Position numbers and translations under genes: made by a program
DNA from: Escherichia phage KM02
Length of the DNA: 40,673 nt
Sequence record: PQ179042
Reading direction: 5' to 3' (one strand)
Shown here: positions 1-37,562 of the stretch, piece after piece
Numbering within the stretch: position 1 is the first letter of the stretch
Layout: each line of letters begins with the position of its first letter
The notes under the pieces: model-generated
Told to the model about the DNA's origin: nothing
The model's input: the letters and a program-made list of their open reading frames with translations, nothing else
The model's database searches: none

Positions 1-1
1 T

Positions 2-177
2 TCTCACAGTTCAAGAACCTCAAGTCTCCCCATAGGCCCTCTTTCAGTCAGACCAAAGGCCCTACCCCAGTCTATCATAAGGTTGGACCGATGGTCAAGA
101 CTTCAGGTCAACGATAGGTAGAGGCTATGGCTTAGGGAAGGACGATAGGTTGGGACTATGGGTCTTCTTTGAGTCTC
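2..177. repeat. Left direct terminal repeat (176 bp), identical to 40498-40673
   Basis: Exact match of window start (from nt 2) to window end; nt 1 (t) does not match 40497 (a). T7 has a comparable 160-bp terminal redundancy. Confidence 0.95.
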
Positions 178-197
178 TATCTGTATAGTGTTATAGT
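169..197 (+). promoter_or_regulatory. Candidate host sigma70 early promoter (TTGAGT-17-TATAGT)
   Basis: -35-like ttgagt at 169-174, 17-nt spacer, -10 tatagt at 192-197; straddles the terminal repeat boundary. Confidence 0.4.
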
Positions 198-214
198 ATA
201 ACATTACGTCCTAC

Positions 215-298
215 ACCTACAGTCTCACTAACCTACAGTCTCACTAACCTACAGTCTCAACCATAAGACACCAACACCTACAGTCATAGACCTACAGT
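215..298. repeat. Array of five ACCTACAGT-core short repeats (two full 16-bp units ACCTACAGTCTCACTA) beginning 38 bp inside the left terminal repeat boundary
   Basis: Copies at 215, 231, 247, 276 and 290, read directly. Confidence 0.8.
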
Positions 299-334
299 TA
301 ATAGACACAAGGCTATAGACTTAAGGTCTAAGAC

Positions 335-550
335 ATGTTAGTCAAAGACTATATCCTCTTACACCATGGGGCCGACGATAGCTTAATCAATATTATTTCG
401 AATTACCTATTGACTATAGGTCCAGACTATGGCTTAATAGCTTCCGTCAACACGACACGGCAACAACCGGATAGTGAAGACGCCTGGTCATCCCGGTTAA
501 GTAGACAGCCTGATAAGTCATACGAACAACAGGCAGATGACAGAAAGTAG
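335..550 (+). CDS. Hypothetical early protein (weakly supported)
   Basis: 71-aa ORF in the track; only a weak aagg Shine-Dalgarno; lies upstream of the best host promoter candidate. Confidence 0.25.
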   Translation: MLVKDYILLHHGADDSLINIISNYLLTIGPDYGLIASVNTTRQQPDSEDAWSSRLSRQPDKSYEQQADDRK

Positions 551-580
551 TTGACAAGATGTACCGACTTAAAGTAGTAT
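551..580 (+). promoter_or_regulatory. Candidate host sigma70 early promoter (TTGACA-18-TAGTAT)
   Basis: Perfect -35 TTGACA at 551-556 and -10-like TAGTAT at 575-580, upstream of the early gene cluster, as for the T7 A promoters. Confidence 0.5.
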
Positions 581-708
581 GTACCACATCAACACGAAAC
601 AACGGTGACGACCAACACTAAAACGGTCTACCTGAAGTCCTCTGACTGAAGGGAATGTTCTTTAACAATCTGGATAAACTCTTAATGTGCGCCGATAGCG
701 ACTAACTA

Positions 709-740
709 CAGGGCCTTTGAGTCTACATCTGAAGGCCCTG
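709..740 (+). promoter_or_regulatory. Leader hairpin (9-bp stem cagggcctt/aaggccctg), candidate RNase III processing site
   Basis: Perfect inverted repeat 709-717 / 732-740, followed by a conserved block gactgatagtcactaact-aaagga that recurs at 1058-1080. Confidence 0.45.
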
Positions 741-763
741 ACTGATAGTCACTAACTTAAAGG

Positions 764-1018
764 ATGGACACTATGAAACACTTAAGCACAATCACTAATC
801 ACAATGAAGTATTCGTGAATACTAAAGGTTATGCGTGGATTCAACTTAAAGAGATGACAGGAGCGCGTCACCGTGTGGTAGTGCGCAAGGTCTCAAGCAA
901 GCCGTTCAGCAACTACAGCGTAGATACTGTGCGTATAGACAACGAGACCTACCTGATAGACTCGCAGATAACCGTGAGTCCTACAGCGGGCGTCTCAGCT
1001 CCTTATTTCGCTAACTGA
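764..1018 (+). CDS. Hypothetical early protein (gene 0.3 position; not Ocr-like in composition)
   Basis: ORF in track; SD aagga at 759-763 favours the internal ATG at 773 as the true start; not acidic like T7 Ocr. Confidence 0.5.
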   Translation: MDTMKHLSTITNHNEVFVNTKGYAWIQLKEMTGARHRVVVRKVSSKPFSNYSVDTVRIDNETYLIDSQITVSPTAGVSAPYFAN

Positions 1019-1032
1019 GAGTGATTAACTAC

Positions 1033-1057
1033 AGGTCGTTAGACTTATAGCGGCCTG
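1033..1057 (+). promoter_or_regulatory. Second leader hairpin (7-bp stem with one G-U pair), candidate RNase III site
   Basis: caggtcg 1033-1039 pairs with cggcctg 1051-1057; followed by the same conserved block plus SD as at 741-775. Confidence 0.4.
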
Positions 1058-1088
1058 ACTGATAGTCACTAACTAAAGGATAGACAAT

Positions 1089-1277
1089 ATGGCAGACCGT
1101 AAGCTGACCAAAGCAGAAGTGATAGCCGAATGTCGTGAAACTTTCCGCGAGTTCCCTGAGACTTTCAGAGGTGACGACATAGCAAAACAGCAGTATTGGA
1201 ATGATTACACAGACAGTCTCTGTAAGTCTGGCATGATTTACAACCACCAGTATAACACCTGGTCAAACCCATTCTAA
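1089..1277 (+). CDS. Hypothetical early protein
   Basis: 62-aa ORF with SD aagga 8 nt upstream inside the repeated leader block. Confidence 0.5.
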   Translation: MADRKLTKAEVIAECRETFREFPETFRGDDIAKQQYWNDYTDSLCKSGMIYNHQYNTWSNPF

Positions 1278-1293
1278 CGTAAGGAATATAACC

Positions 1294-1806
1294 ATGAAAC
1301 TGATAGGCAAAGGCGCGTTCACTAAGTGCTACCTGAAGGATTGCGGAAAGCGTGTACTTCTGGTCTCTTCAGACCCAATCAAGGAGTGCATGGCGTGGGG
1401 CTGGTTCCCTGAGTCGCCGCTGTTCCCTGAAGTCAAGATGATTGAGGTAGGCACGTATGAGATGGACTACATGCCACCAACACGAGGACTCAAGGCGCAT
1501 TTAGGTGACGACCAGTGGCAACTCTATCAGGTGCTGCGAGATTGCTTCTCACGGTCTCCGGTATTCTCTCAACCTGCTGACCTGTATCACAAGTGGTACG
1601 AGATATTCCAAGCTGCACACGACAGGTCTGAGACCGAGACTGTGCGGGAAGGTCTGATGGATGTACTGATGGCGCTGGACGCTTGCGCTAACTTTGGGTC
1701 TGACATTCAGTTTGAGATAAGCCCACGCAATGTACGGGCCGTTCACGGCAAGTTGATACTGGTGGACTGCTTCTTCCTTGTGTCCAAGCTGCAAGAGGTG
1801 AGGTAA
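1294..1806 (+). CDS. 0.7: Short Ser/Thr protein kinase, T7 gp0.7-like kinase domain only
   Basis: N-terminal KLIGKGAFTKCY resembles the glycine-rich loop KMLGNGHFSAAY recalled from T7 gp0.7; SD aagga present; 170 aa versus 359 aa in T7. Confidence 0.55.
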   Translation: MKLIGKGAFTKCYLKDCGKRVLLVSSDPIKECMAWGWFPESPLFPEVKMIEVGTYEMDYMPPTRGLKAHLGDDQWQLYQVLRDCFSRSPVFSQPADLYHKWYEIFQAAHDRSETETVREGLMDVLMALDACANFGSDIQFEISPRNVRAVHGKLILVDCFFLVSKLQEVR

Positions 1807-1811
1807 TCAAG

Positions 1812-1961
1812 ATGGTAACTTATGGTCTCTGCCAGCACCACGTCACCAACGCCCGGCTTATGGTCAAGACCGGGCAGTTAAACCACGATGCGACTATGCG
1901 CTATCTGAAAGCGGTCTACGAGGGCCGCAAGCGTATACACGACAGTTTACACGCTGAGTGA
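1812..1961 (+). CDS. Small hypothetical protein (49 aa)
   Basis: ATG at 1812 preceded by gaggtgagg; not in the ORF track because it is under 60 aa. Confidence 0.25.
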   Translation: MVTYGLCQHHVTNARLMVKTGQLNHDATMRYLKAVYEGRKRIHDSLHAE

Positions 1962-2028
1962 CAGACGATAGGTCATCTAACTGATAGGTGGCCTCAAAGA
2001 TTATCACTTAAATTGATAGGGGTTAACT

Positions 2029-2193
2029 ATGAAACTTACAGGCATCACACTTTACGTAACCATCATTCTGTCTTGGCTGACTGCGGTCATAGCTGATGGG
2101 AATGCACTACGCCTTGGTTGGCTGGCAGTTGATATCATATTCTCTCCGGTAGGGGTTGTGCGTGGCATCCTGATGTGGATTGGACTGGCGTGA
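2029..2193 (+). CDS. Small hydrophobic (membrane) protein, 54 aa
   Basis: ORF MKLTGITLYVTIILSWLTAVIADGNALRLGWLAVDIIFSPVGVVRGILMWIGLA read from sequence; weak SD. Confidence 0.3.
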   Translation: MKLTGITLYVTIILSWLTAVIADGNALRLGWLAVDIIFSPVGVVRGILMWIGLA

Positions 2194-2199
2194 TAAACT

Positions 2200-2400
2200 A
2201 TGAGTCTTGCACTATTGATAGCCATAGGCTATGGACTTATCGCCTACGTGCTGGTGAGAGACATCAACAAAGCGCGTAAAGTCTATAAATTCAACTATGT
2301 ACGTATGGTCCGCTGGACTGTACGTCAACCTAACGGACGATTCATGTGCAACCTCGCGAACGTCTGGGATATAGCAACTCTTGGGAGCAAACTACAATGA
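2200..2400 (+). CDS. Hypothetical protein (weak)
   Basis: 66-aa ORF in track; no clear SD; overlaps the next ORF. Confidence 0.2.
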   Translation: MSLALLIAIGYGLIAYVLVRDINKARKVYKFNYVRMVRWTVRQPNGRFMCNLANVWDIATLGSKLQ

Positions 2401-2723
2401 ACAAGTCATACGGGATTAATCTGGTACACTCTATGGACGCAGACATGCAAATGTTAAGCCTACTGGCTACCGGGTATCGTCACGGAACGTCAAGTCACAC
2501 CTCACGTCAACAGCAGGAGCGGGACCGTGTACTACAGGCACGACTCCGGGCAGAGGGCCATAAGTCCGAGCTGATGTGTCTGGCGTATGGTGGACGACCA
2601 ATCACCGACGATGGTAAACTTCTGGTCTCAGGCTGGAAGGCGATAGACCAACGGTCAACCATCAAGCACACGACTCACGGTGACTTCTGTCATCTTCATG
2701 CTAACCCTCTGATATGCAAGTAA
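2346..2723 (+). CDS. Hypothetical early protein (probable start at ATG 2397)
   Basis: 125-aa ORF; ggag lies 9 nt before the internal ATG at 2397. Confidence 0.35.
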   Translation: MQPRERLGYSNSWEQTTMNKSYGINLVHSMDADMQMLSLLATGYRHGTSSHTSRQQQERDRVLQARLRAEGHKSELMCLAYGGRPITDDGKLLVSGWKAIDQRSTIKHTTHGDFCHLHANPLICK

Positions 2724-2728
2724 TTATG

Positions 2729-2751
2729 ACTTAACTATCACTATAGGACTC
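2729..2751 (+). promoter_or_regulatory. Phage-RNAP promoter directly upstream of the RNAP gene
   Basis: cttaactatcactatagg at 2730-2747 matches the consensus of the ten other phage promoters in this genome. Confidence 0.6.
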
Positions 2752-2820
2752 AAGGTCTAAGACTCCAAGTGAAAGACCAAAGAGACTTTAAGTGAAAGAC
2801 TAATAACAAGGACTTTAAGT

Positions 2821-5502
2821 ATGAGCGTCATCTCTATTGAAAAACACGACTTCTCTGATGTGTCGAACGCCATTGAGCCGTTTAACCTGCTGGCTGACCA
2901 CTACGGGCAAGACCTTGCAGTCAAACAGCTTCAGCTTGAGCACGAGGCATACACTGAAGGCGAGCGACGTTTCATCAAGAACCTTGAGCGCCAGACTGAG
3001 CGCGGGGAACTGGCAGACAATCAGGTCGCCAAGCCTTTGATGCAGACTCTGGTCCCTAATATTGCGCAAGCCGTCAGGGAGTGGCATGAAGGGCCAGACG
3101 GGAAGCTGTCAACCTCTCGTCCTAGCGTAGCGTTCACCGTGTTGAGCACTGAAGAGAAGGCCGTCAAGGACCGCTCTATGCGCATCTCCTGTGAGTCTGC
3201 TGCGGTTATCATACTGAAGGTCATACTCTCCAAGCTGGTCAAGCCTGAAGGGATACCGATTACACCGATGGCCTCAGCGATAGGTCGCACACTTGAGGAC
3301 GAAATCCGCTTCGGTCGCATCCGTGACAAGGAGAAAGAGCACTTCAAGAAGGCGATAGCTGATAACCTGAATAAGCGGGCCGGGGCGTCCTACAAGAAAG
3401 CCTACATGCAAGCGGTCGAGGCATCCATGCTGGAGCAAGGCCAACTGGAAGATGCGTGGGGGACTTGGAGTCCGACCGAGGCTGTCCACGTTGGAATCAA
3501 GATGCTGGAGATTGTCATCCAGTCCACACAACTGGTCGAGCTTAAGCGTTACGGTGCTGGCAATGCAGCGGCTGACGTTGAGATGGTCCACCTGTCAGAC
3601 TTCTGGGTCAAGAAGATGGCACAACGAGGATTCAGCCTTGCGGGTATAGCTCCAGTCTACCAGCCTTGCGTCGTTCCACCTAAGCCGTGGACTGGTGTCG
3701 TAGGTGGTGGGTACTGGGCCAAAGGACGCAGACCATTACCACTGATTCGCTTAGGGTCTAAGTCTGCGGTAGCACGCTACGAAGACGTGTATATGCCTGA
3801 AGTCTATGACGCTGTGAACATCATTCAGAATACACCTTGGAAAGTGAACAAGAAGGTTCTGGAAGTGGTGAACATGGTCGAGAAGCTGAACAACACGCCT
3901 ATTGATGACATACCTCAGATGGAACCGCTGAAGCCTGAGGACTATGCGGGTGAGACTGAAGATGAACTCAAGGCATGGAAGAAGGCTGCTGCTGGTATCT
4001 ACCGCCGAGAGAAGGCACGGCAGTCACGCAGATTGTCACTGAGCTTTATCGTTAACCAAGCGAACAAGTTCTCTCAGTTCAAGGTCATATGGTTTCCGTA
4101 CAACATGGACTGGCGCGGTCGCGTCTACGCTGTGCCGATGTTCAACCCTCAAGGCAACGACATGCAGAAAGGTCTCCTTACTCTGGCAGTCGGCAAGCCT
4201 ATTGGCGCTGATGGTTTCAAGTGGCTGAAGGTCCATGGTGCAAACTGTGCGGGTGTCGATAAAGTCACCTTCGAGGAGCGCATCAAGTGGGTGGAAGACA
4301 ACCACGACAACATCATGGCTGCTGCTAAAGCACCGATGGACAGCATTGAGTGGTGGGGCAAGTTAGACTCTCCGTTCTGTTTCCTCGCGTTCTGCTTCGA
4401 GTATGCTGGCGTAATGCACCACGGCCTGTCTTACTCCTGCTCGCTGCCGATAGCGTTCGATGGGTCCTGCTCTGGTATTCAGCACTTCAGTGCGATGCTT
4501 CGTGACCACATCGGTGGACATGCAGTAAACCTGACGCCATCCGGTAAGGTACAAGACATCTACCGCATTGTGTCTGACCGCATTGAGGAGGAGCTTAAAG
4601 TCCTGCTGATTAACGGTACTGACAACGAGATGGGCACTCACGAGGATAAGAAAACTGGTGAGATTACCGAACGTATCAAGCTGGGGACACGAGAGCTGGC
4701 CCGTCAGTGGCTGACATACGGTATGTCACGCAAGGTCACTAAGCGTTCAGTCATGACTCTGGCCTACGGGTCGAAAGAGTATGGCTTCGCAGACCAAGTT
4801 TACGAGGACATCGTGATGCCAGCGATTGACTCAGGGTCTGGCGCTATGTTCACCGAGCCAAGCCAAGCGGCTCGCTTCATGGCTAATATGATTTGGGAAG
4901 CTGTGAGTGTGACCGTAGTTGCTGCGGTAGACGCTATGAAGTGGCTTCAGGGTGCCGCCAAGCTGCTGGCTGCTGAAGTGAAGGACAAGAAGACTGGAGA
5001 AATCCTGAAGCCTTGCCTTCCGGTACACTGGGTAACACCTGATGGTTTCCCGGTCTGGCAGGAATATCGCAAGAAGGATACCACTCGTCTGAACTTGATG
5101 TTCTTAGGGTCATTCAACCTTCAGCCTACCGTCAACAGGGGTACGAAGAAAGAGCTGGACAAGCACAAGCAGGAGTCAGGCATTAGCCCGAACTTCGTCC
5201 ACTCACAAGATGGTAGCCACCTACGCAAGACTGTAGTCCATACTCACCGCAAGTATGGCGTGATGTCGTTCGCAGTGATTCACGATAGCTTCGGGACCAT
5301 CCCGGCTGACGCTGAGTATCTGTTCCGTGGGGTCCGTGAGACTATGGTCGAGACCTACCTAGACAACGATGTGCTGCTTGACTTCTACGAGCAGTTTGAA
5401 TACCAGCTTCACGAGAGCCAGCGCGATAAGTTGCCAGAGCTTCCGAAGAAAGGTAAACTGAATATCGAAGACATCTTGTCTTCAGACTTTGCATTCGCTT
5501 AA
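2821..5502 (+). CDS. 1: DNA-directed RNA polymerase, single-subunit T7-type
   Basis: 893 aa; extensive identity to recalled T7 RNAP motifs (FSDV...PFN.LADHYG, WFPYNMDWRGRVYAV, HGANCAGVDK, ending DFAFA). Confidence 0.98.
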   Translation: MSVISIEKHDFSDVSNAIEPFNLLADHYGQDLAVKQLQLEHEAYTEGERRFIKNLERQTERGELADNQVAKPLMQTLVPNIAQAVREWHEGPDGKLSTSRPSVAFTVLSTEEKAVKDRSMRISCESAAVIILKVILSKLVKPEGIPITPMASAIGRTLEDEIRFGRIRDKEKEHFKKAIADNLNKRAGASYKKAYMQAVEASMLEQGQLEDAWGTWSPTEAVHVGIKMLEIVIQSTQLVELKRYGAGNAAADVEMVHLSDFWVKKMAQRGFSLAGIAPVYQPCVVPPKPWTGVVGGGYWAKGRRPLPLIRLGSKSAVARYEDVYMPEVYDAVNIIQNTPWKVNKKVLEVVNMVEKLNNTPIDDIPQMEPLKPEDYAGETEDELKAWKKAAAGIYRREKARQSRRLSLSFIVNQANKFSQFKVIWFPYNMDWRGRVYAVPMFNPQGNDMQKGLLTLAVGKPIGADGFKWLKVHGANCAGVDKVTFEERIKWVEDNHDNIMAAAKAPMDSIEWWGKLDSPFCFLAFCFEYAGVMHHGLSYSCSLPIAFDGSCSGIQHFSAMLRDHIGGHAVNLTPSGKVQDIYRIVSDRIEEELKVLLINGTDNEMGTHEDKKTGEITERIKLGTRELARQWLTYGMSRKVTKRSVMTLAYGSKEYGFADQVYEDIVMPAIDSGSGAMFTEPSQAARFMANMIWEAVSVTVVAAVDAMKWLQGAAKLLAAEVKDKKTGEILKPCLPVHWVTPDGFPVWQEYRKKDTTRLNLMFLGSFNLQPTVNRGTKKELDKHKQESGISPNFVHSQDGSHLRKTVVHTHRKYGVMSFAVIHDSFGTIPADAEYLFRGVRETMVETYLDNDVLLDFYEQFEYQLHESQRDKLPELPKKGKLNIEDILSSDFAFA

Positions 5503-5520
5503 CAGGAGAGAGAGAGAGCT

Positions 5521-5736
5521 ATGAAATTTGCACACAAGCATACTGGCATTAATGGTGGGACTCAAATCGTGACCGTAACAGAACACAACGGCAAGGGTCT
5601 GGTGAAGACCACGGTCATCCCTACCGAGATGTCCAAGCAGCTTAACATCCCGTTCAAGACTCTTGTAGATCTGGTCGAGTCCAGCCACGAGAAGTACCTG
5701 AAGGACGCAGTGTCCAAACTGGAGCAGACCAAATGA
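5521..5736 (+). CDS. Hypothetical protein
   Basis: 71-aa ORF with SD aggag; follows a (GA)6 run at 5506-5518. Confidence 0.45.
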   Translation: MKFAHKHTGINGGTQIVTVTEHNGKGLVKTTVIPTEMSKQLNIPFKTLVDLVESSHEKYLKDAVSKLEQTK

Positions 5737-5811
5737 CAGACCTACAGTTGCTGGCCTTGTGGCTGGGAGCACTCGCAGTATTCACTTTAATCCAACGCAG
5801 AAGAGGTTAAC

Positions 5812-5834
5812 CCTAAACTATCACTATAGGATTA
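5812..5834 (+). promoter_or_regulatory. Phage-RNAP promoter (T7 phi1.1 analogue)
   Basis: ctaaactatcactatagg at 5813-5830. Confidence 0.75.
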
Positions 5835-5874
5835 GACTCAAGGTCATGACTCAAAGTCGTGGCCTTCATGATTA
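5833..5874 (+). promoter_or_regulatory. Conserved RNase III-site-like motif (copy A; T7 R1.1 position)
   Basis: tagactcaaggtcat-N11-gtggccttcatgatta; near-identical copies at 13420-13461 and 37474-37512. Confidence 0.5.
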
Positions 5875-5907
5875 ACCCTAAATAAACACTACTGGAGATT
5901 TAACCGT

Positions 5908-6087
5908 ATGTATCAGAATACTATCAACTTCGAGCGCATCCGTGAACGTCAGCAGACTGAAGGCTACATACCGAAGGGCCGCAAGCTGAACAAGACTAAA
6001 CGTGGCGGTGGTGTCAAAGGCGCTTTCCGTAATGCTGAAGGTAAAGACTCTATGATCAACCAAGAGAAGTACTTCGTAGGAGCGTAA
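5908..6087 (+). CDS. 1.1: gp1.1-like small basic protein
   Basis: 59-aa ORF with KGRKLNKTKR motif matching T7 gp1.1 as recalled; SD ggag. Confidence 0.55.
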   Translation: MYQNTINFERIRERQQTEGYIPKGRKLNKTKRGGGVKGAFRNAEGKDSMINQEKYFVGA

Positions 6088-6090
6088 GCC

Positions 6091-6342
6091 ATGAGTAAAC
6101 GTTGGTTATTCGACGCATCACCGAGCCAGTGGTCAGCGTTAGGCCGGACTCACCGCGAGATGAGTGAGGCAGGACTTGATGTCAAAATGGATGGCTCGCC
6201 GTGCTCCGGAAAAACTCTGGTAAGAGTAATTGAAGCAGACGGTGTGGGGCTTCTGGTCTCCAGAGAATTTACCGAAGATGAAATCTTTAGCTGTGAGCAA
6301 TGGTGCTTACGACAATTGAACGCTTATAGGAGCTGGAAATAA
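6091..6342 (+). CDS. 1.2: gp1.2-like protein (host dGTPase inhibitor family by position)
   Basis: 83 aa, right size and position, ends in WK like T7 gp1.2; SD aggag. Confidence 0.45.
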   Translation: MSKRWLFDASPSQWSALGRTHREMSEAGLDVKMDGSPCSGKTLVRVIEADGVGLLVSREFTEDEIFSCEQWCLRQLNAYRSWK

Positions 6343-7397
6343 TGACTACGACTATTAAAACTAACCCGCACCGCGCTGTAGATTACTCTGAGTCTGGCGT
6401 TAAGAAGGCTTTGGAAGCTGCTGGGTCACTGGAAGCTGAAGTGAAGTATGACGGTGTGCGGTTGAACCTTCCGGTCTTCCCTACTGGTGAGACTCAATGG
6501 TTGAGCCGTGAGTCCAAAGAGCTTCCGGCCCTAAGCTGGCTGGGCACATCCGGTGACGACATCGGTTCTGCCAAGGCTAGCGACTGGCGATGGTTCCTTA
6601 AACAGGCTGGATACGAAGGTACTGGCCTGATGATTGACGGCGAGGTGATGGTAAAGGGTGTAGACTTCAACACATCCTCAGGACTTATTCGCACGAAGTG
6701 GCTGAAGCCTGATAACCTAAAGTTCAATGACGTAAAGTTTGACGAGATGCCTCGTAAGTCTACAGGCGCTAAGTCTAAACTTCCGTTCCTACTGGCAGCC
6801 GAGCATATCCAAGTGGTTGTATACGGGATTATTGACCTTAACGTCATCCTAGACCCAAAAGCTGAAGGGCCTATCCACAGCGTAACGAGACTGAAGGCCG
6901 AAGCTGTCGTCCCTCTCCTCCAGAAATACTCCCCGGAAATCGACTGGGTGCTATCTGAGAGTCATACAGTGTTTAGCTTAGACGAGCTTACTGACTTGTA
7001 TGAGAAGAAGAGAGAAGAGGGCCATGAGGGTCTGGTAGTTAAAGACCCACTGGGTAAATGGAAGCGTGGCAAGAAGTCAGGCATGTGGAAGATGAAGCCA
7101 AGCGAAGAGGCGGATGGTCATGTTGTGCGCCCTGTGTGGGGTACGGATGGGTTAGCCAACGAAGGCATGGTCATCGGATTTGACGTTATGCTTGAGAACG
7201 GGATGGAGGTCTCCGCAACTAACATTAGTCGCGCCCTTATGTCCGAGTTCACGGAGAATGTTAAGTCAGACCCTGACTACTACAAGGGGTGGGCTTGCCA
7301 AATTACCTACATGGAGAAGACACCAGATGGAAGCCTCCGACACCCGTCATTCGACCAATGGCGGGGGACTGAGGACAATCCAACGGAGAAGATGTAA
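6342..7397 (+). CDS. 1.3: ATP-dependent DNA ligase
   Basis: 351 aa with the ligase adenylation motif KYDGVR; T7 gene 1.3 position. Confidence 0.9.
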   Translation: MTTTIKTNPHRAVDYSESGVKKALEAAGSLEAEVKYDGVRLNLPVFPTGETQWLSRESKELPALSWLGTSGDDIGSAKASDWRWFLKQAGYEGTGLMIDGEVMVKGVDFNTSSGLIRTKWLKPDNLKFNDVKFDEMPRKSTGAKSKLPFLLAAEHIQVVVYGIIDLNVILDPKAEGPIHSVTRLKAEAVVPLLQKYSPEIDWVLSESHTVFSLDELTDLYEKKREEGHEGLVVKDPLGKWKRGKKSGMWKMKPSEEADGHVVRPVWGTDGLANEGMVIGFDVMLENGMEVSATNISRALMSEFTENVKSDPDYYKGWACQITYMEKTPDGSLRHPSFDQWRGTEDNPTEKM

Positions 7398-7579
7398 TGA
7401 TAATTTTTGACCAAGGCATTTGGAAGGTATGGCAACATCCACACTTACAGGTATTCCACATCCTGAAATGGTCTGAGGGAGATGACCCATCCTCTTATGG
7501 GAGCAAGTGGGATTACTTCATACAGAAAGAGTGTTGGAGTATACTCGAGGTAAAGGCATATCTTCAAGCTAACATGTAG
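7397..7579 (+). CDS. Hypothetical protein lying between the ligase stop and a displaced ligase 3' remnant
   Basis: 60-aa ORF; its ATG overlaps the ligase stop (taATGa). Confidence 0.4.
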   Translation: MIIFDQGIWKVWQHPHLQVFHILKWSEGDDPSSYGSKWDYFIQKECWSILEVKAYLQANM

Positions 7580-7582
7580 TAA

Positions 7583-7657
7583 CAATGGCCAGTACTTCGT
7601 CACCCTAGCTTCAAGTGCTGGCGCGGGACGGAAGATAACCCGACCATTAAGAGCTAA
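7583..7657 (+). pseudogene. Displaced, divergent remnant of a ligase C-terminus
   Basis: Encodes QWPVLRHPSFKCWRGTEDNPTIKS, versus the true ligase end SLRHPSFDQWRGTEDNPTEKM; codons differ mainly at synonymous positions. Confidence 0.6.
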
Positions 7658-7666
7658 CTAAATGTC

Positions 7667-7700
7667 AACCCAGTGGTCTTATGACTGCTGGGTTTCTTTG
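7667..7700 (+). terminator. Rho-independent terminator (T7 TE analogue)
   Basis: Stem aacccag (7667-7673) / ctgggtt (7688-7694) followed by tctttg. Confidence 0.55.
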
Positions 7701-7739
7701 CTTATGCTAGCAAGCTATCGTTTGGGCCACCAGCTAGAC

Positions 7740-7762
7740 CCTAAGCTATCACTATAGGACAA
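7740..7762 (+). promoter_or_regulatory. Phage-RNAP promoter (phi1.5-like)
   Basis: ctaagctatcactatagg at 7741-7758; one mismatch to consensus. Confidence 0.65.
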
Positions 7763-7788
7763 CCCTAACCGACCAAAGGAGAAACCTT

Positions 7789-8043
7789 ATGTCTAAAAAC
7801 TTAATGTTCAACCGATTTACTAGAAGCTTCCACCTGTCGCATAGCCCATTCAGCTTCCATAAAGCTAATCAACCATTACCCCGCTTTGGTAAGACAGTGG
7901 CTCTGTCTCCTACAGTTCATGCGCTAGTCACCCGCAAGTCTATGCTGAATGCTATGGATAAAGAACAAATTGATGTACCTGTGGTCGTTACAAAATGGCC
8001 TCGCATTAAGCTGGCACTTCTGGTAATTAAGGAGGCGCTCTGA
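7789..8043 (+). CDS. Hypothetical protein
   Basis: 84-aa ORF with SD aaggag. Confidence 0.5.
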   Translation: MSKNLMFNRFTRSFHLSHSPFSFHKANQPLPRFGKTVALSPTVHALVTRKSMLNAMDKEQIDVPVVVTKWPRIKLALLVIKEAL

Positions 8044-13216: not shown

Positions 13217-13417
13217 GTGCGATTGGAAGTCACCATACGGAGGACACCATTAGTGTTTAAGAAACTTAAAGCTCGCTACCATCGGTTCATGTACAAATGG
13301 TGGAGCGATGAAGCAACCTGCCTGTCGAACATTCTTGGAGAACAGCGGTTCGAGTCTAAGGCATGGAAGAAAGCTAACCGTAAGTTTATGTACCACTTCT
13401 TACGTACAGACTTATAG
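13217..13417 (+). CDS. Hypothetical protein (probable GTG start at 13253)
   Basis: ORF in track; SD acggagga lies 7 nt before the GTG at 13253. Confidence 0.35.
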   Translation: MRLEVTIRRTPLVFKKLKARYHRFMYKWWSDEATCLSNILGEQRFESKAWKKANRKFMYHFLRTDL

Positions 13418-13419
13418 GT

Positions 13420-13461
13420 ATAGACTCAAGGTCATTCACATCGAGTGGCCTTTATGATTAG
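13420..13461 (+). promoter_or_regulatory. Conserved RNase III-site-like motif (copy B; T7 R4.7 position)
   Basis: tagactcaaggtcat-N9-gtggcctttatgatta immediately upstream of gene 5. Confidence 0.5.
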
Positions 13462-13480
13462 ACTAAACGGAGGATTAACC

Positions 13481-37210: not shown

Positions 37211-37470
37211 CGCAGATGGACTTAGAGAAGTTCCTCTTGATGCTAGATACTGAACGTGCTAGACTCATGCTGCAAGACCTGCGGGATGACTCTAAGCGTT
37301 CTCCTCAGCTCTACAACGCCATTGAGAAGCTTCTGGCTCGTCACAACTTTGTGTTAAGCAAGGTGTCTGTTGACGAGAAGACGCTCGCTGATATGGAGGC
37401 CCTGAACGCAGAGTATGATAAGGTGCTCTCAGCGAACGAGGATAATGACACCGGGTATGGTGTCCAGTAA
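37207..37470 (+). CDS. 18: Terminase small subunit
   Basis: LMLDTERARLMLQDL...RSPQLYNAIEKLLARH matches T7 gp18. Confidence 0.88.
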   Translation: MTQMDLEKFLLMLDTERARLMLQDLRDDSKRSPQLYNAIEKLLARHNFVLSKVSVDEKTLADMEALNAEYDKVLSANEDNDTGYGVQ

Positions 37471-37473
37471 GTG

Positions 37474-37512
37474 TTAGACTCAAGGTCATCTATTGGTGGC
37501 CTTCATGATTAG
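37474..37512 (+). promoter_or_regulatory. Conserved RNase III-site-like motif (copy C; T7 R18.5 position)
   Basis: tagactcaaggtcat-N6-gtggccttcatgatta between genes 18 and 18.5. Confidence 0.5.
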
Positions 37513-37562
37513 CACTAACGTAGGTGACTATACGTGAATTCTTTTAAAACAGGAGGGCAACT

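Follow-up and report, generated by a model that had tools for sequence, protein, structure and literature searches.

The two near-identical leader segments that precede consecutive small early genes of Escherichia phage KM02 very probably belong to a set of at least six RNase III processing signals of the T7 type in this K1F-like genome, a conclusion drawn from comparison of sequences and of predicted RNA structures. We term these segments unit A (hairpin at 695-755, translation-initiation region at 756-775) and unit B (hairpin at 1018-1072, translation-initiation region at 1073-1091). Coordinates are those of the window, by which we mean the whole stretch of 40,673 nt that was analysed (sequence record PQ179042), and the hairpins, translation-initiation regions, early genes and early promoter described below lie on the + strand.

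The left 3 kb of the window shows 89-95% identity to K1F-like coliphages and to Salmonella, Citrobacter and Cronobacter relatives, and a gene for a T7-type single-subunit RNA polymerase (gene 1) is located at 2821-5502. Judged by its sequence, the window is the genome of a Kayfunavirus (K1F-like; Studiervirinae, the T7 subfamily). The left-end identity to K1F-like phages and the position of the polymerase gene place units A and B in the early region, which is transcribed by the host polymerase. The best sigma-70-like early promoter, identified by consensus match only, is found at 551-580 (TTGACA-18-TAGTAT, 10/12), and a host promoter is annotated at the homologous position in the record of phage GA2A. 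An early transcript from this promoter would begin approximately 155 nt upstream of the predicted cut in unit A, the RNase III-type site that is reached first from this promoter and that corresponds in position to T7 R0.3. The first gene of the pair (773-1018) encodes an 81-aa protein of the K1F gp0.2 family (phrog_10124), and its TGA stop codon (1016-1018) abuts the lower stem of unit B. The second (1089-1277) encodes a 62-aa protein (phrog_336) that is missing from K1F at this position. Neither Pfam nor PHROGs provided a function for the 81-aa or the 62-aa gene. The non-coding left end of the window also contains repeats that resemble the arrays near T7 genome ends, namely three tandem copies of a 16-nt repeat at 215-262 (ACCTACAGTCTCACTA) and three copies of a GATAGG...CTATGG motif (111-165 and 413-436).

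When the segments 735-775 and 1052-1091 are aligned, 37 of 41 columns are identical and there is one 1-nt gap, in agreement with an earlier note on this DNA, which had described them as near-identical blocks. The exact 21-mer CCTGACTGATAGTCACTAACT is present at 737 and 1054 only, even when up to 3 mismatches are allowed and both strands of the 40.7 kb are searched, compared with 0.01 matches expected from shuffled sequences; none of 100 shuffles contained two or more. The note had also proposed that each block follows a stem-loop and had called for RNA folding of both regions. Both stem-loops do fold (709-740, -17.0 kcal/mol, z -4.3; 1033-1057, -12.2 kcal/mol, z -4.5), but hairpin and block proved to be parts of one bipartite structure rather than successive elements. 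The likeness between the units continues upstream of the hairpins (GATAGCGACTAACTACAGG at 694 and GAGAGTGATTAACTACAGG at 1017), and in the predicted folds these upstream arms (...GCGACTAACTACAGG at 698 and ...GTGATTAACTACAGG at 1021) pair with the first 15-20 nt or so of what had been taken as the conserved block, so that each unit forms a single two-tier hairpin of approximately 55-60 nt. The complete hairpins have folding energies of -23.1 kcal/mol (unit A, 696-754) and -21.8 kcal/mol (unit B, 1020-1070), with z-scores of about -5 in both cases.

Minimum free energy and centroid folds both predict a 10-bp upper stem, an asymmetric internal loop of 4 nt and 5 nt, and a lower stem for each of the two units. 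In unit A the lower stem is formed by 696-704/746-754 and the upper stem by 709-718/731-740, with an internal loop at 705-708 (ACUA)/741-745 (ACUGA) and an apical loop at 719-730. In unit B the corresponding elements are 1020-1027/1063-1070 (lower stem), 1032-1041/1048-1057 (upper stem), 1028-1031/1058-1062 (internal loop) and 1042-1047 (apical loop). Compensatory changes distinguish the upper stems of the two units from one another; in the 3' half and the leader the units are almost identical. Both hairpins are followed by CUAACU, a Shine-Dalgarno (SD) sequence AAGGA, 8 nt and an AUG codon. In unit A this region comprises a CUUA linker, the SD at 760-764, the 8-nt spacer and the AUG at 773-775; in unit B the AAGGA is at 1076-1080 and the 8-nt spacer leads to the AUG at 1089-1091. 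The gene behind unit A is likely to start at ATG 773 and not at ATG 764 as called by the ORF finder, because the former has the right SD spacing and matches the annotation of K1F gp0.2 (AM084414). In several relatives the first early site is 83-84 nt long (L014, 820-903; L016, 729-811; L023, 834-917; L024, 787-869; L025, 715-798) and carries approximately 23 extra nt at its apex (...CCGCGAGACGGGCTTGACTTGAGCGA...); the large apical loop of unit A (719-730) is a short form of this longer version.

Seven T7 RNase III sites, and no others, were used to construct a covariance model, with which we scanned the whole window with filters off. The register of the model was set by T7 cleavage coordinates that we take to be those of Dunn & Studier 1983, RNase III features not being found in the GenBank and RefSeq records of T7. 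Eight of the ten presumed coordinates fall in the expected structure; R6.5 and R13, which lie outside it, were dropped, and R3.8, which was misaligned, was left out of the model. In the resulting seven-site alignment 92% of the pairs are formed and 12 of 20 pairs covary. Six significant matches were obtained in the window, all on the + strand, with E-values that are rough owing to a short calibration: unit A (695-755; 35.1 bits, E 5e-6) and unit B (1018-1072; 41.5 bits, E 1.4e-7), both matched over the full length of the model; a third early site, site C (1955-2010; 28.0 bits, E 2.7e-4), which precedes a 54-aa ORF at 2029 and went unremarked in the earlier note; a site after gene 1 (5826-5881; 46.8 bits, E 6.5e-9); a site in the middle region (13414-13467; 46.9 bits, E 6.3e-9); and a late site (37468-37518; 54.4 bits, E 8.7e-11), which is closest to T7 R18.5. 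Alignment to the T7 sites predicts cuts at A1998/G1999 in site C and at 5869/5870, 13455/13456 and 37506/37507 in the last three, respectively. The site after gene 1 is located just downstream of a phage promoter, as in the T7 phi1.1A/R1.1 arrangement. The sites at 5826-5881, 13414-13467 and 37468-37518 carry a T7-like loop strand, CCUU(C/U)AUGAUUA. On the - strand of the window no match was better than E 3.2.

The folds of units A and B have the same shape as those of T7 R0.3, R0.5, R1.1, R4.7 and R18.5; in all, eight T7 sites were folded alongside the two units, and a common dot-bracket shape resulted. The presumed T7 cuts share a single location, between the third and fourth nucleotides of the 3' loop strand (...U/GAU), and the putative scissile context of units A and B, ACU/GAU, aligns with UAU/GAU in T7. 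The base of the upper stem in the window units (CAGG/CCUG) is identical to that of T7 R1, and the middle U-G and C-G pairs match R1.1. In the distal-box region, for which the comparison with the known rules is a partial one, G-C/U-G (unit B) and C-G/U-A (unit A) are found in place of the canonical A-U/U-G. Unit B folds at -23.3 kcal/mol on the + strand compared with -11.2 kcal/mol on the complement. Such a marked preference for the + strand, which arises from G-U pairs, is seen at five of the six sites in the window. The earlier note had likened the two units to the signals between T7 early genes, and the sequence homology of both units to the T7 sites, their T7-like folds and the conserved structure described below support this comparison. 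The duplication that it reported is real, but the pair is not special: the genome has at least six such sites, units A and B included. Covariance models of Rfam 15 gave no match at E ≤ 1 in positions 1-8000 of the window, and no RNase III site is annotated in the five GenBank records that were inspected. Likewise, no link of K1F or Kayfunavirus with RNase III or transcript ends appeared in the literature searched, a set from which the K1F genome paper was absent.

For comparison with relatives, 80 early regions were fetched via the RNA polymerase gene at 58-98% protein identity. The T7-derived model detected 75 sites in the 22 Kayfunavirus loci of this set and a further 154 in the 58 more distant Studiervirinae loci, and every one of these matches (229/229) is on the transcribed strand. 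The earlier note had counted a lack of structure conservation in relatives among what would refute its interpretation; the structure is in fact conserved: 94.6% of the pair cells in the 75-site alignment are standard pairs, compared with 21-44% when the partners are slid by 1-3 columns, and double-sided (compensatory) changes are present at 12 of 20 pairs. As this alignment was fitted to the model, we repeated the analysis independently, aligning 20 distinct A/B-type sites with MAFFT and folding them with RNAalifold. The prediction agreed in every element (lower stem, isolated C-G pair, 10-bp upper stem and loop), with compensatory changes at 7 of 18 pairs (e.g. CG/GC/AU at one position). In each of the 21 Kayfunavirus loci that cover the region upstream of gene 1, site C keeps the same relative position, approximately -700 to -1200 from that gene. 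In a blastn search 147 phage records proved to contain unit B, frequently in two or three copies per genome, and no RNA-site annotation of it appears among the 40 of these 147 records that were listed. These results establish the structure of units A and B, its conservation and polarity, and their homology to validated sites.

If units A and B are processing signals, the host RNA polymerase would start near 551-580 and generate a polycistronic early transcript, in which each intercistronic signal would fold during transcription into the lower stem, the 4/5 internal loop and the 10-bp upper stem; folding and covariation both show this predicted two-tier fold. Host RNase III would cut each signal once, in the 3' strand of the internal loop, and alignment to the T7 sites predicts that the cut falls at U743/G744 in unit A and at U1060/G1061 in unit B. 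By homology with T7 we infer cleavage of both units, its exact position and its consequences. Following the T7 paradigm, the upstream mRNA would end in the upper hairpin, protected from 3' exonucleases, and the downstream mRNA would begin with GAUAGUCACUAACU, about 28-29 nt before the AAGGA-N8-AUG site. The RNAs resulting from the early sites would be a leader fragment of ~155 nt, a monocistronic mRNA of ~317 nt (744-1060) that encodes the 81-aa protein and ends in the unit B hairpin, and an mRNA of ~938 nt (1061-1998) that carries the next three ORFs. T7 early precursor RNA undergoes co-transcriptional cutting at five sites, and several messages depend on this for their optimal translation (PMC4858673); single-strand cuts by RNase III leave stabilising 3' hairpins (PMC3867540).

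The earlier note had further described the repeats as translation-initiation units. This part of its reading is supported only in part: a good SD at ideal spacing does follow each site, but the predicted accessibility of the start region is essentially unaltered by cleavage. The predicted unpaired probability of the SD/AUG region in the precursor compared with the processed RNA is 0.64 vs 0.53 for site A, 0.58 vs 0.59 for site B and 0.45 vs 0.44 for site C, so that folding gives no support to unmasking by cleavage at these three sites, and any gain in translation would need something other than simple unmasking. In T7 the gp0.7 protein kinase, also the host shut-off protein, stimulates RNase III, an accessory feature that does not define the RNA element. 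A tblastn search of the whole window revealed no homologue of this kinase (best E 2.5; gp1 control, 7e-95). The label "protein kinase" that the Vec13 record gives to an Ocr-like ORF looks like a mis-annotation.

It is possible, though unlikely, that RNase III leaves the hairpins uncut and that they serve as structural elements of the mRNA, acting as exonuclease barriers, as insulators between cistrons or as sites of RNase III binding only. Folding and covariation demonstrate a conserved structure, not cleavage, and variants of T7 R1.1 that are competent for binding yet resistant to cleavage exist (PMC1540722). The internal loop of units A and B is moreover unlike that of the majority of T7 sites. 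However, both units are clearly homologous to sites that are cut in vivo and retain U/GAU and the 4/5 loop, and T7 R1, which is cleaved, has the same C-G closing pair and CCUGA. The same enzyme is also supplied throughout the host range (E. coli and other enterobacteria).

The sites are also the fixed joints of a mosaic early region. In the 22 relatives the 3' half of the A/B-type sites (CCTGACTGATAGTCACTAAC) precedes at least ten unrelated ORF families, with N-termini MKHLS, MADRK, MKLIGKG, MERNAN (Ocr-like), MRLNK, MKIIAM, MIYTNEP, MNAHDK, MTAKTR and MIYVLT, and between one and three A/B-type copies are present per genome. The ends of blastn homology between the window and 23 relatives cluster at 725-774 (25 ends), 1050-1099 (21) and 1950-1974 (17), and many homology ends are located exactly at 756 or 1073, right after CACTAAC. 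K1F (L001) provides an example of a replaced cassette downstream of unit B: its homology to the window ends at 1073 and restarts at 1811, and where the window has a 62-aa and a 170-aa ORF (1089-1806; phrog_336 and phrog_11084), K1F has a gene for a 169-aa Ocr-like "gp0.3" (1086-1622). A chimeric site in one relative (L007, 1889-1949) has an upper stem of the A type and a 5' strand of the B type; in sites of two others (L016, 729-811; L022, 1553-1605), too, the 5' strand and the upper stem belong to different subtypes. These chimeras suggest that recombination has taken place inside the sites.

The sites thus mark the exchange of early-gene cassettes and may also mediate it. The conserved 3' half and the leader would then form, in addition to the processing signal, a common boundary of interchangeable cassettes. 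We tentatively suggest, at somewhat less than even probability, that the near-invariant 3' half (CCUGACUGAUAGUCACUAAC) and leader serve as portable homology junctions for the swap, gain and loss of early genes in Kayfunavirus and neighbouring T7-like phages. The genes exchanged are probably concerned with host takeover or anti-defence. Such junctions would explain the chimeric sites, the variation in copy number from one to three, and the breakpoints exactly at 756 and 1073. Alternatively, the sites may simply be conserved islands between variable genes; breakpoints are also expected to cluster at any conserved functional element that has variable genes next to it. A stronger version, in which the repeats are primarily DNA-level recombination linkers of mobile early-gene cassettes and their RNA structure is secondary, draws on the same unrelated ORF families, clustered homology ends, chimeric sites and variable copy number. 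We consider this version very unlikely, as a linker as the sole function would leave unexplained the strict strand polarity, the compensatory base changes and the homology to T7 sites at conserved, non-mosaic positions such as that after gene 1.

The elements could also be bound as operators by an RNA-binding protein of the phage or the host, such as a translational repressor that acts on the shared hairpin and SD leader. The leader UAAAGGAUA.ACA..AUG is common to several unrelated genes, and the 3' half is kept more strictly than pairing alone requires. Nevertheless, an operator function is highly improbable: the early ORFs contain no detected RNA-binding domains and offer no candidate protein, and the element family is that of T7, whose known partner is RNase III. 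The near-identical 3' halves within one genome might finally suggest a recent local duplication, a functionless chance repeat or a transcription terminator, explanations of negligible probability given the shuffle statistics and covariation, which rule out chance and neutral duplication, the compensatory differences between the upper stems and the conservation of the sites across genera. A Rho-independent terminator was rejected on the grounds that the hairpins lack a U-tract and are followed by ACUGAUAGUC, the terminator scan being empty at both units. The repeats were also rejected as promoters, as no consensus is present in either unit and the one promoter-like match, at 765-792 in the start of a coding region, is weak (9/12).

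The core of a phage-polymerase promoter, AACTATCACTATAGGR, is present in ten copies, all on the + strand and against 0.04 expected, at 2733-2748, 5816, 7744, 8709, 17890, 21108, 22095, 27158, 34624 and 39901. The RNA polymerase gene has one of these cores (2733-2748) 73 nt upstream of it. Behind this core comes ACTCAAGGTC, which corresponds to an R-site in its 5' half, but a canonical site is missing directly before gene 1 (2725-2825), where the model is silent and the fold has a z-score of -1.4. To our knowledge gene 1 of T7 is not directly preceded by a phage promoter, and for this reason it is possible that the promoter found here allows the polymerase to activate its own expression.

Units A and B belong to an ordinary and well-understood kind of element that is unannotated in this phage group, and they leave the current understanding of RNase III and of T7 biology unchanged. 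K1F-like phages serve as therapeutic and engineering chassis, and predictable cut positions would aid the reading of their transcriptomes. If a payload cassette is inserted downstream of a copy of the 75-nt module, its expression and insulation should be like those of the native early genes. Fixed joints between variable early genes would also be useful in the search for anti-defence genes and in reconstructing gene exchange among T7-like phages.

Among known systems, units A and B most closely resemble the early sites R0.3, R0.5 and R1 of T7 (PMC3867540, PMC4858673), with which they share the lower stem, the 4/5 loop and the 10-bp upper stem. Like R0.3 and R0.5, they are intercistronic, on the same strand, immediately behind a stop codon and at a distance of 28-35 nt from the AUG that follows; the stop codon of T7 gene 0.4 abuts R0.5 just as that of the 81-aa gene abuts unit B. 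The sequence homology between unit B (GAGUGAUUAACUACAGGUCG...GGCCUGACUGAUAGUCACU) and R0.5 (GAGUGAUAGACUCAAGGUCG...GGCCUUUAUGAUUAUCACU) is obvious. Unit A has the upper-stem base AGGG...CCCU in common with R0.3, and the window units share the ACAGG...CCUGA variant and the C-G closing pair with R1. In contrast, most T7 sites have UAUGA in place of ACUGA in the 3' loop strand and an A-U in place of a C-G closing pair, and in the distal-box region unit B has a G-C pair where T7 sites have A-U or G-U. The 12-nt apical loop of unit A is also unlike those of the T7 early sites, and the genes served by units A and B are unrelated to T7 0.3 and 0.5. At the level of the genome, the window differs from T7 in having neither a canonical site directly before gene 1 nor a gp0.7 kinase.

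T7 R1.1 is a 60-nt hairpin that is cut once in vivo, on the 3' side of its internal loop (PMC1540722, PMC6121014), and this loop has the same 4/5 asymmetry (PMC6121014). Its positional counterpart in the window is the site at 5826-5881, behind a phage promoter, whereas units A and B are early, transcribed by the host polymerase and different in loop sequence. A more distant parallel is provided by the PeSLs of T4-type phages (PMC2839356, PMC4122927), likewise a short conserved intergenic motif that flanks small variable early ORFs. Both PeSLs and A/B-type sites coincide with the boundaries of insertions, deletions and replacements. However, their sequences are unrelated, and a PeSL consists of an early promoter and a terminator-like stem-loop, whereas units A and B combine a processing site with an SD and have neither promoter nor terminator. 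PeSLs have been proposed to mediate recombination in T4-type phages (PMC2839356), a role that for units A and B is suggested by the pattern of breakpoints and chimeras. If the A/B-type sites do act as portable junctions, they would be the analogue in the T7 group of the PeSL system of T4.
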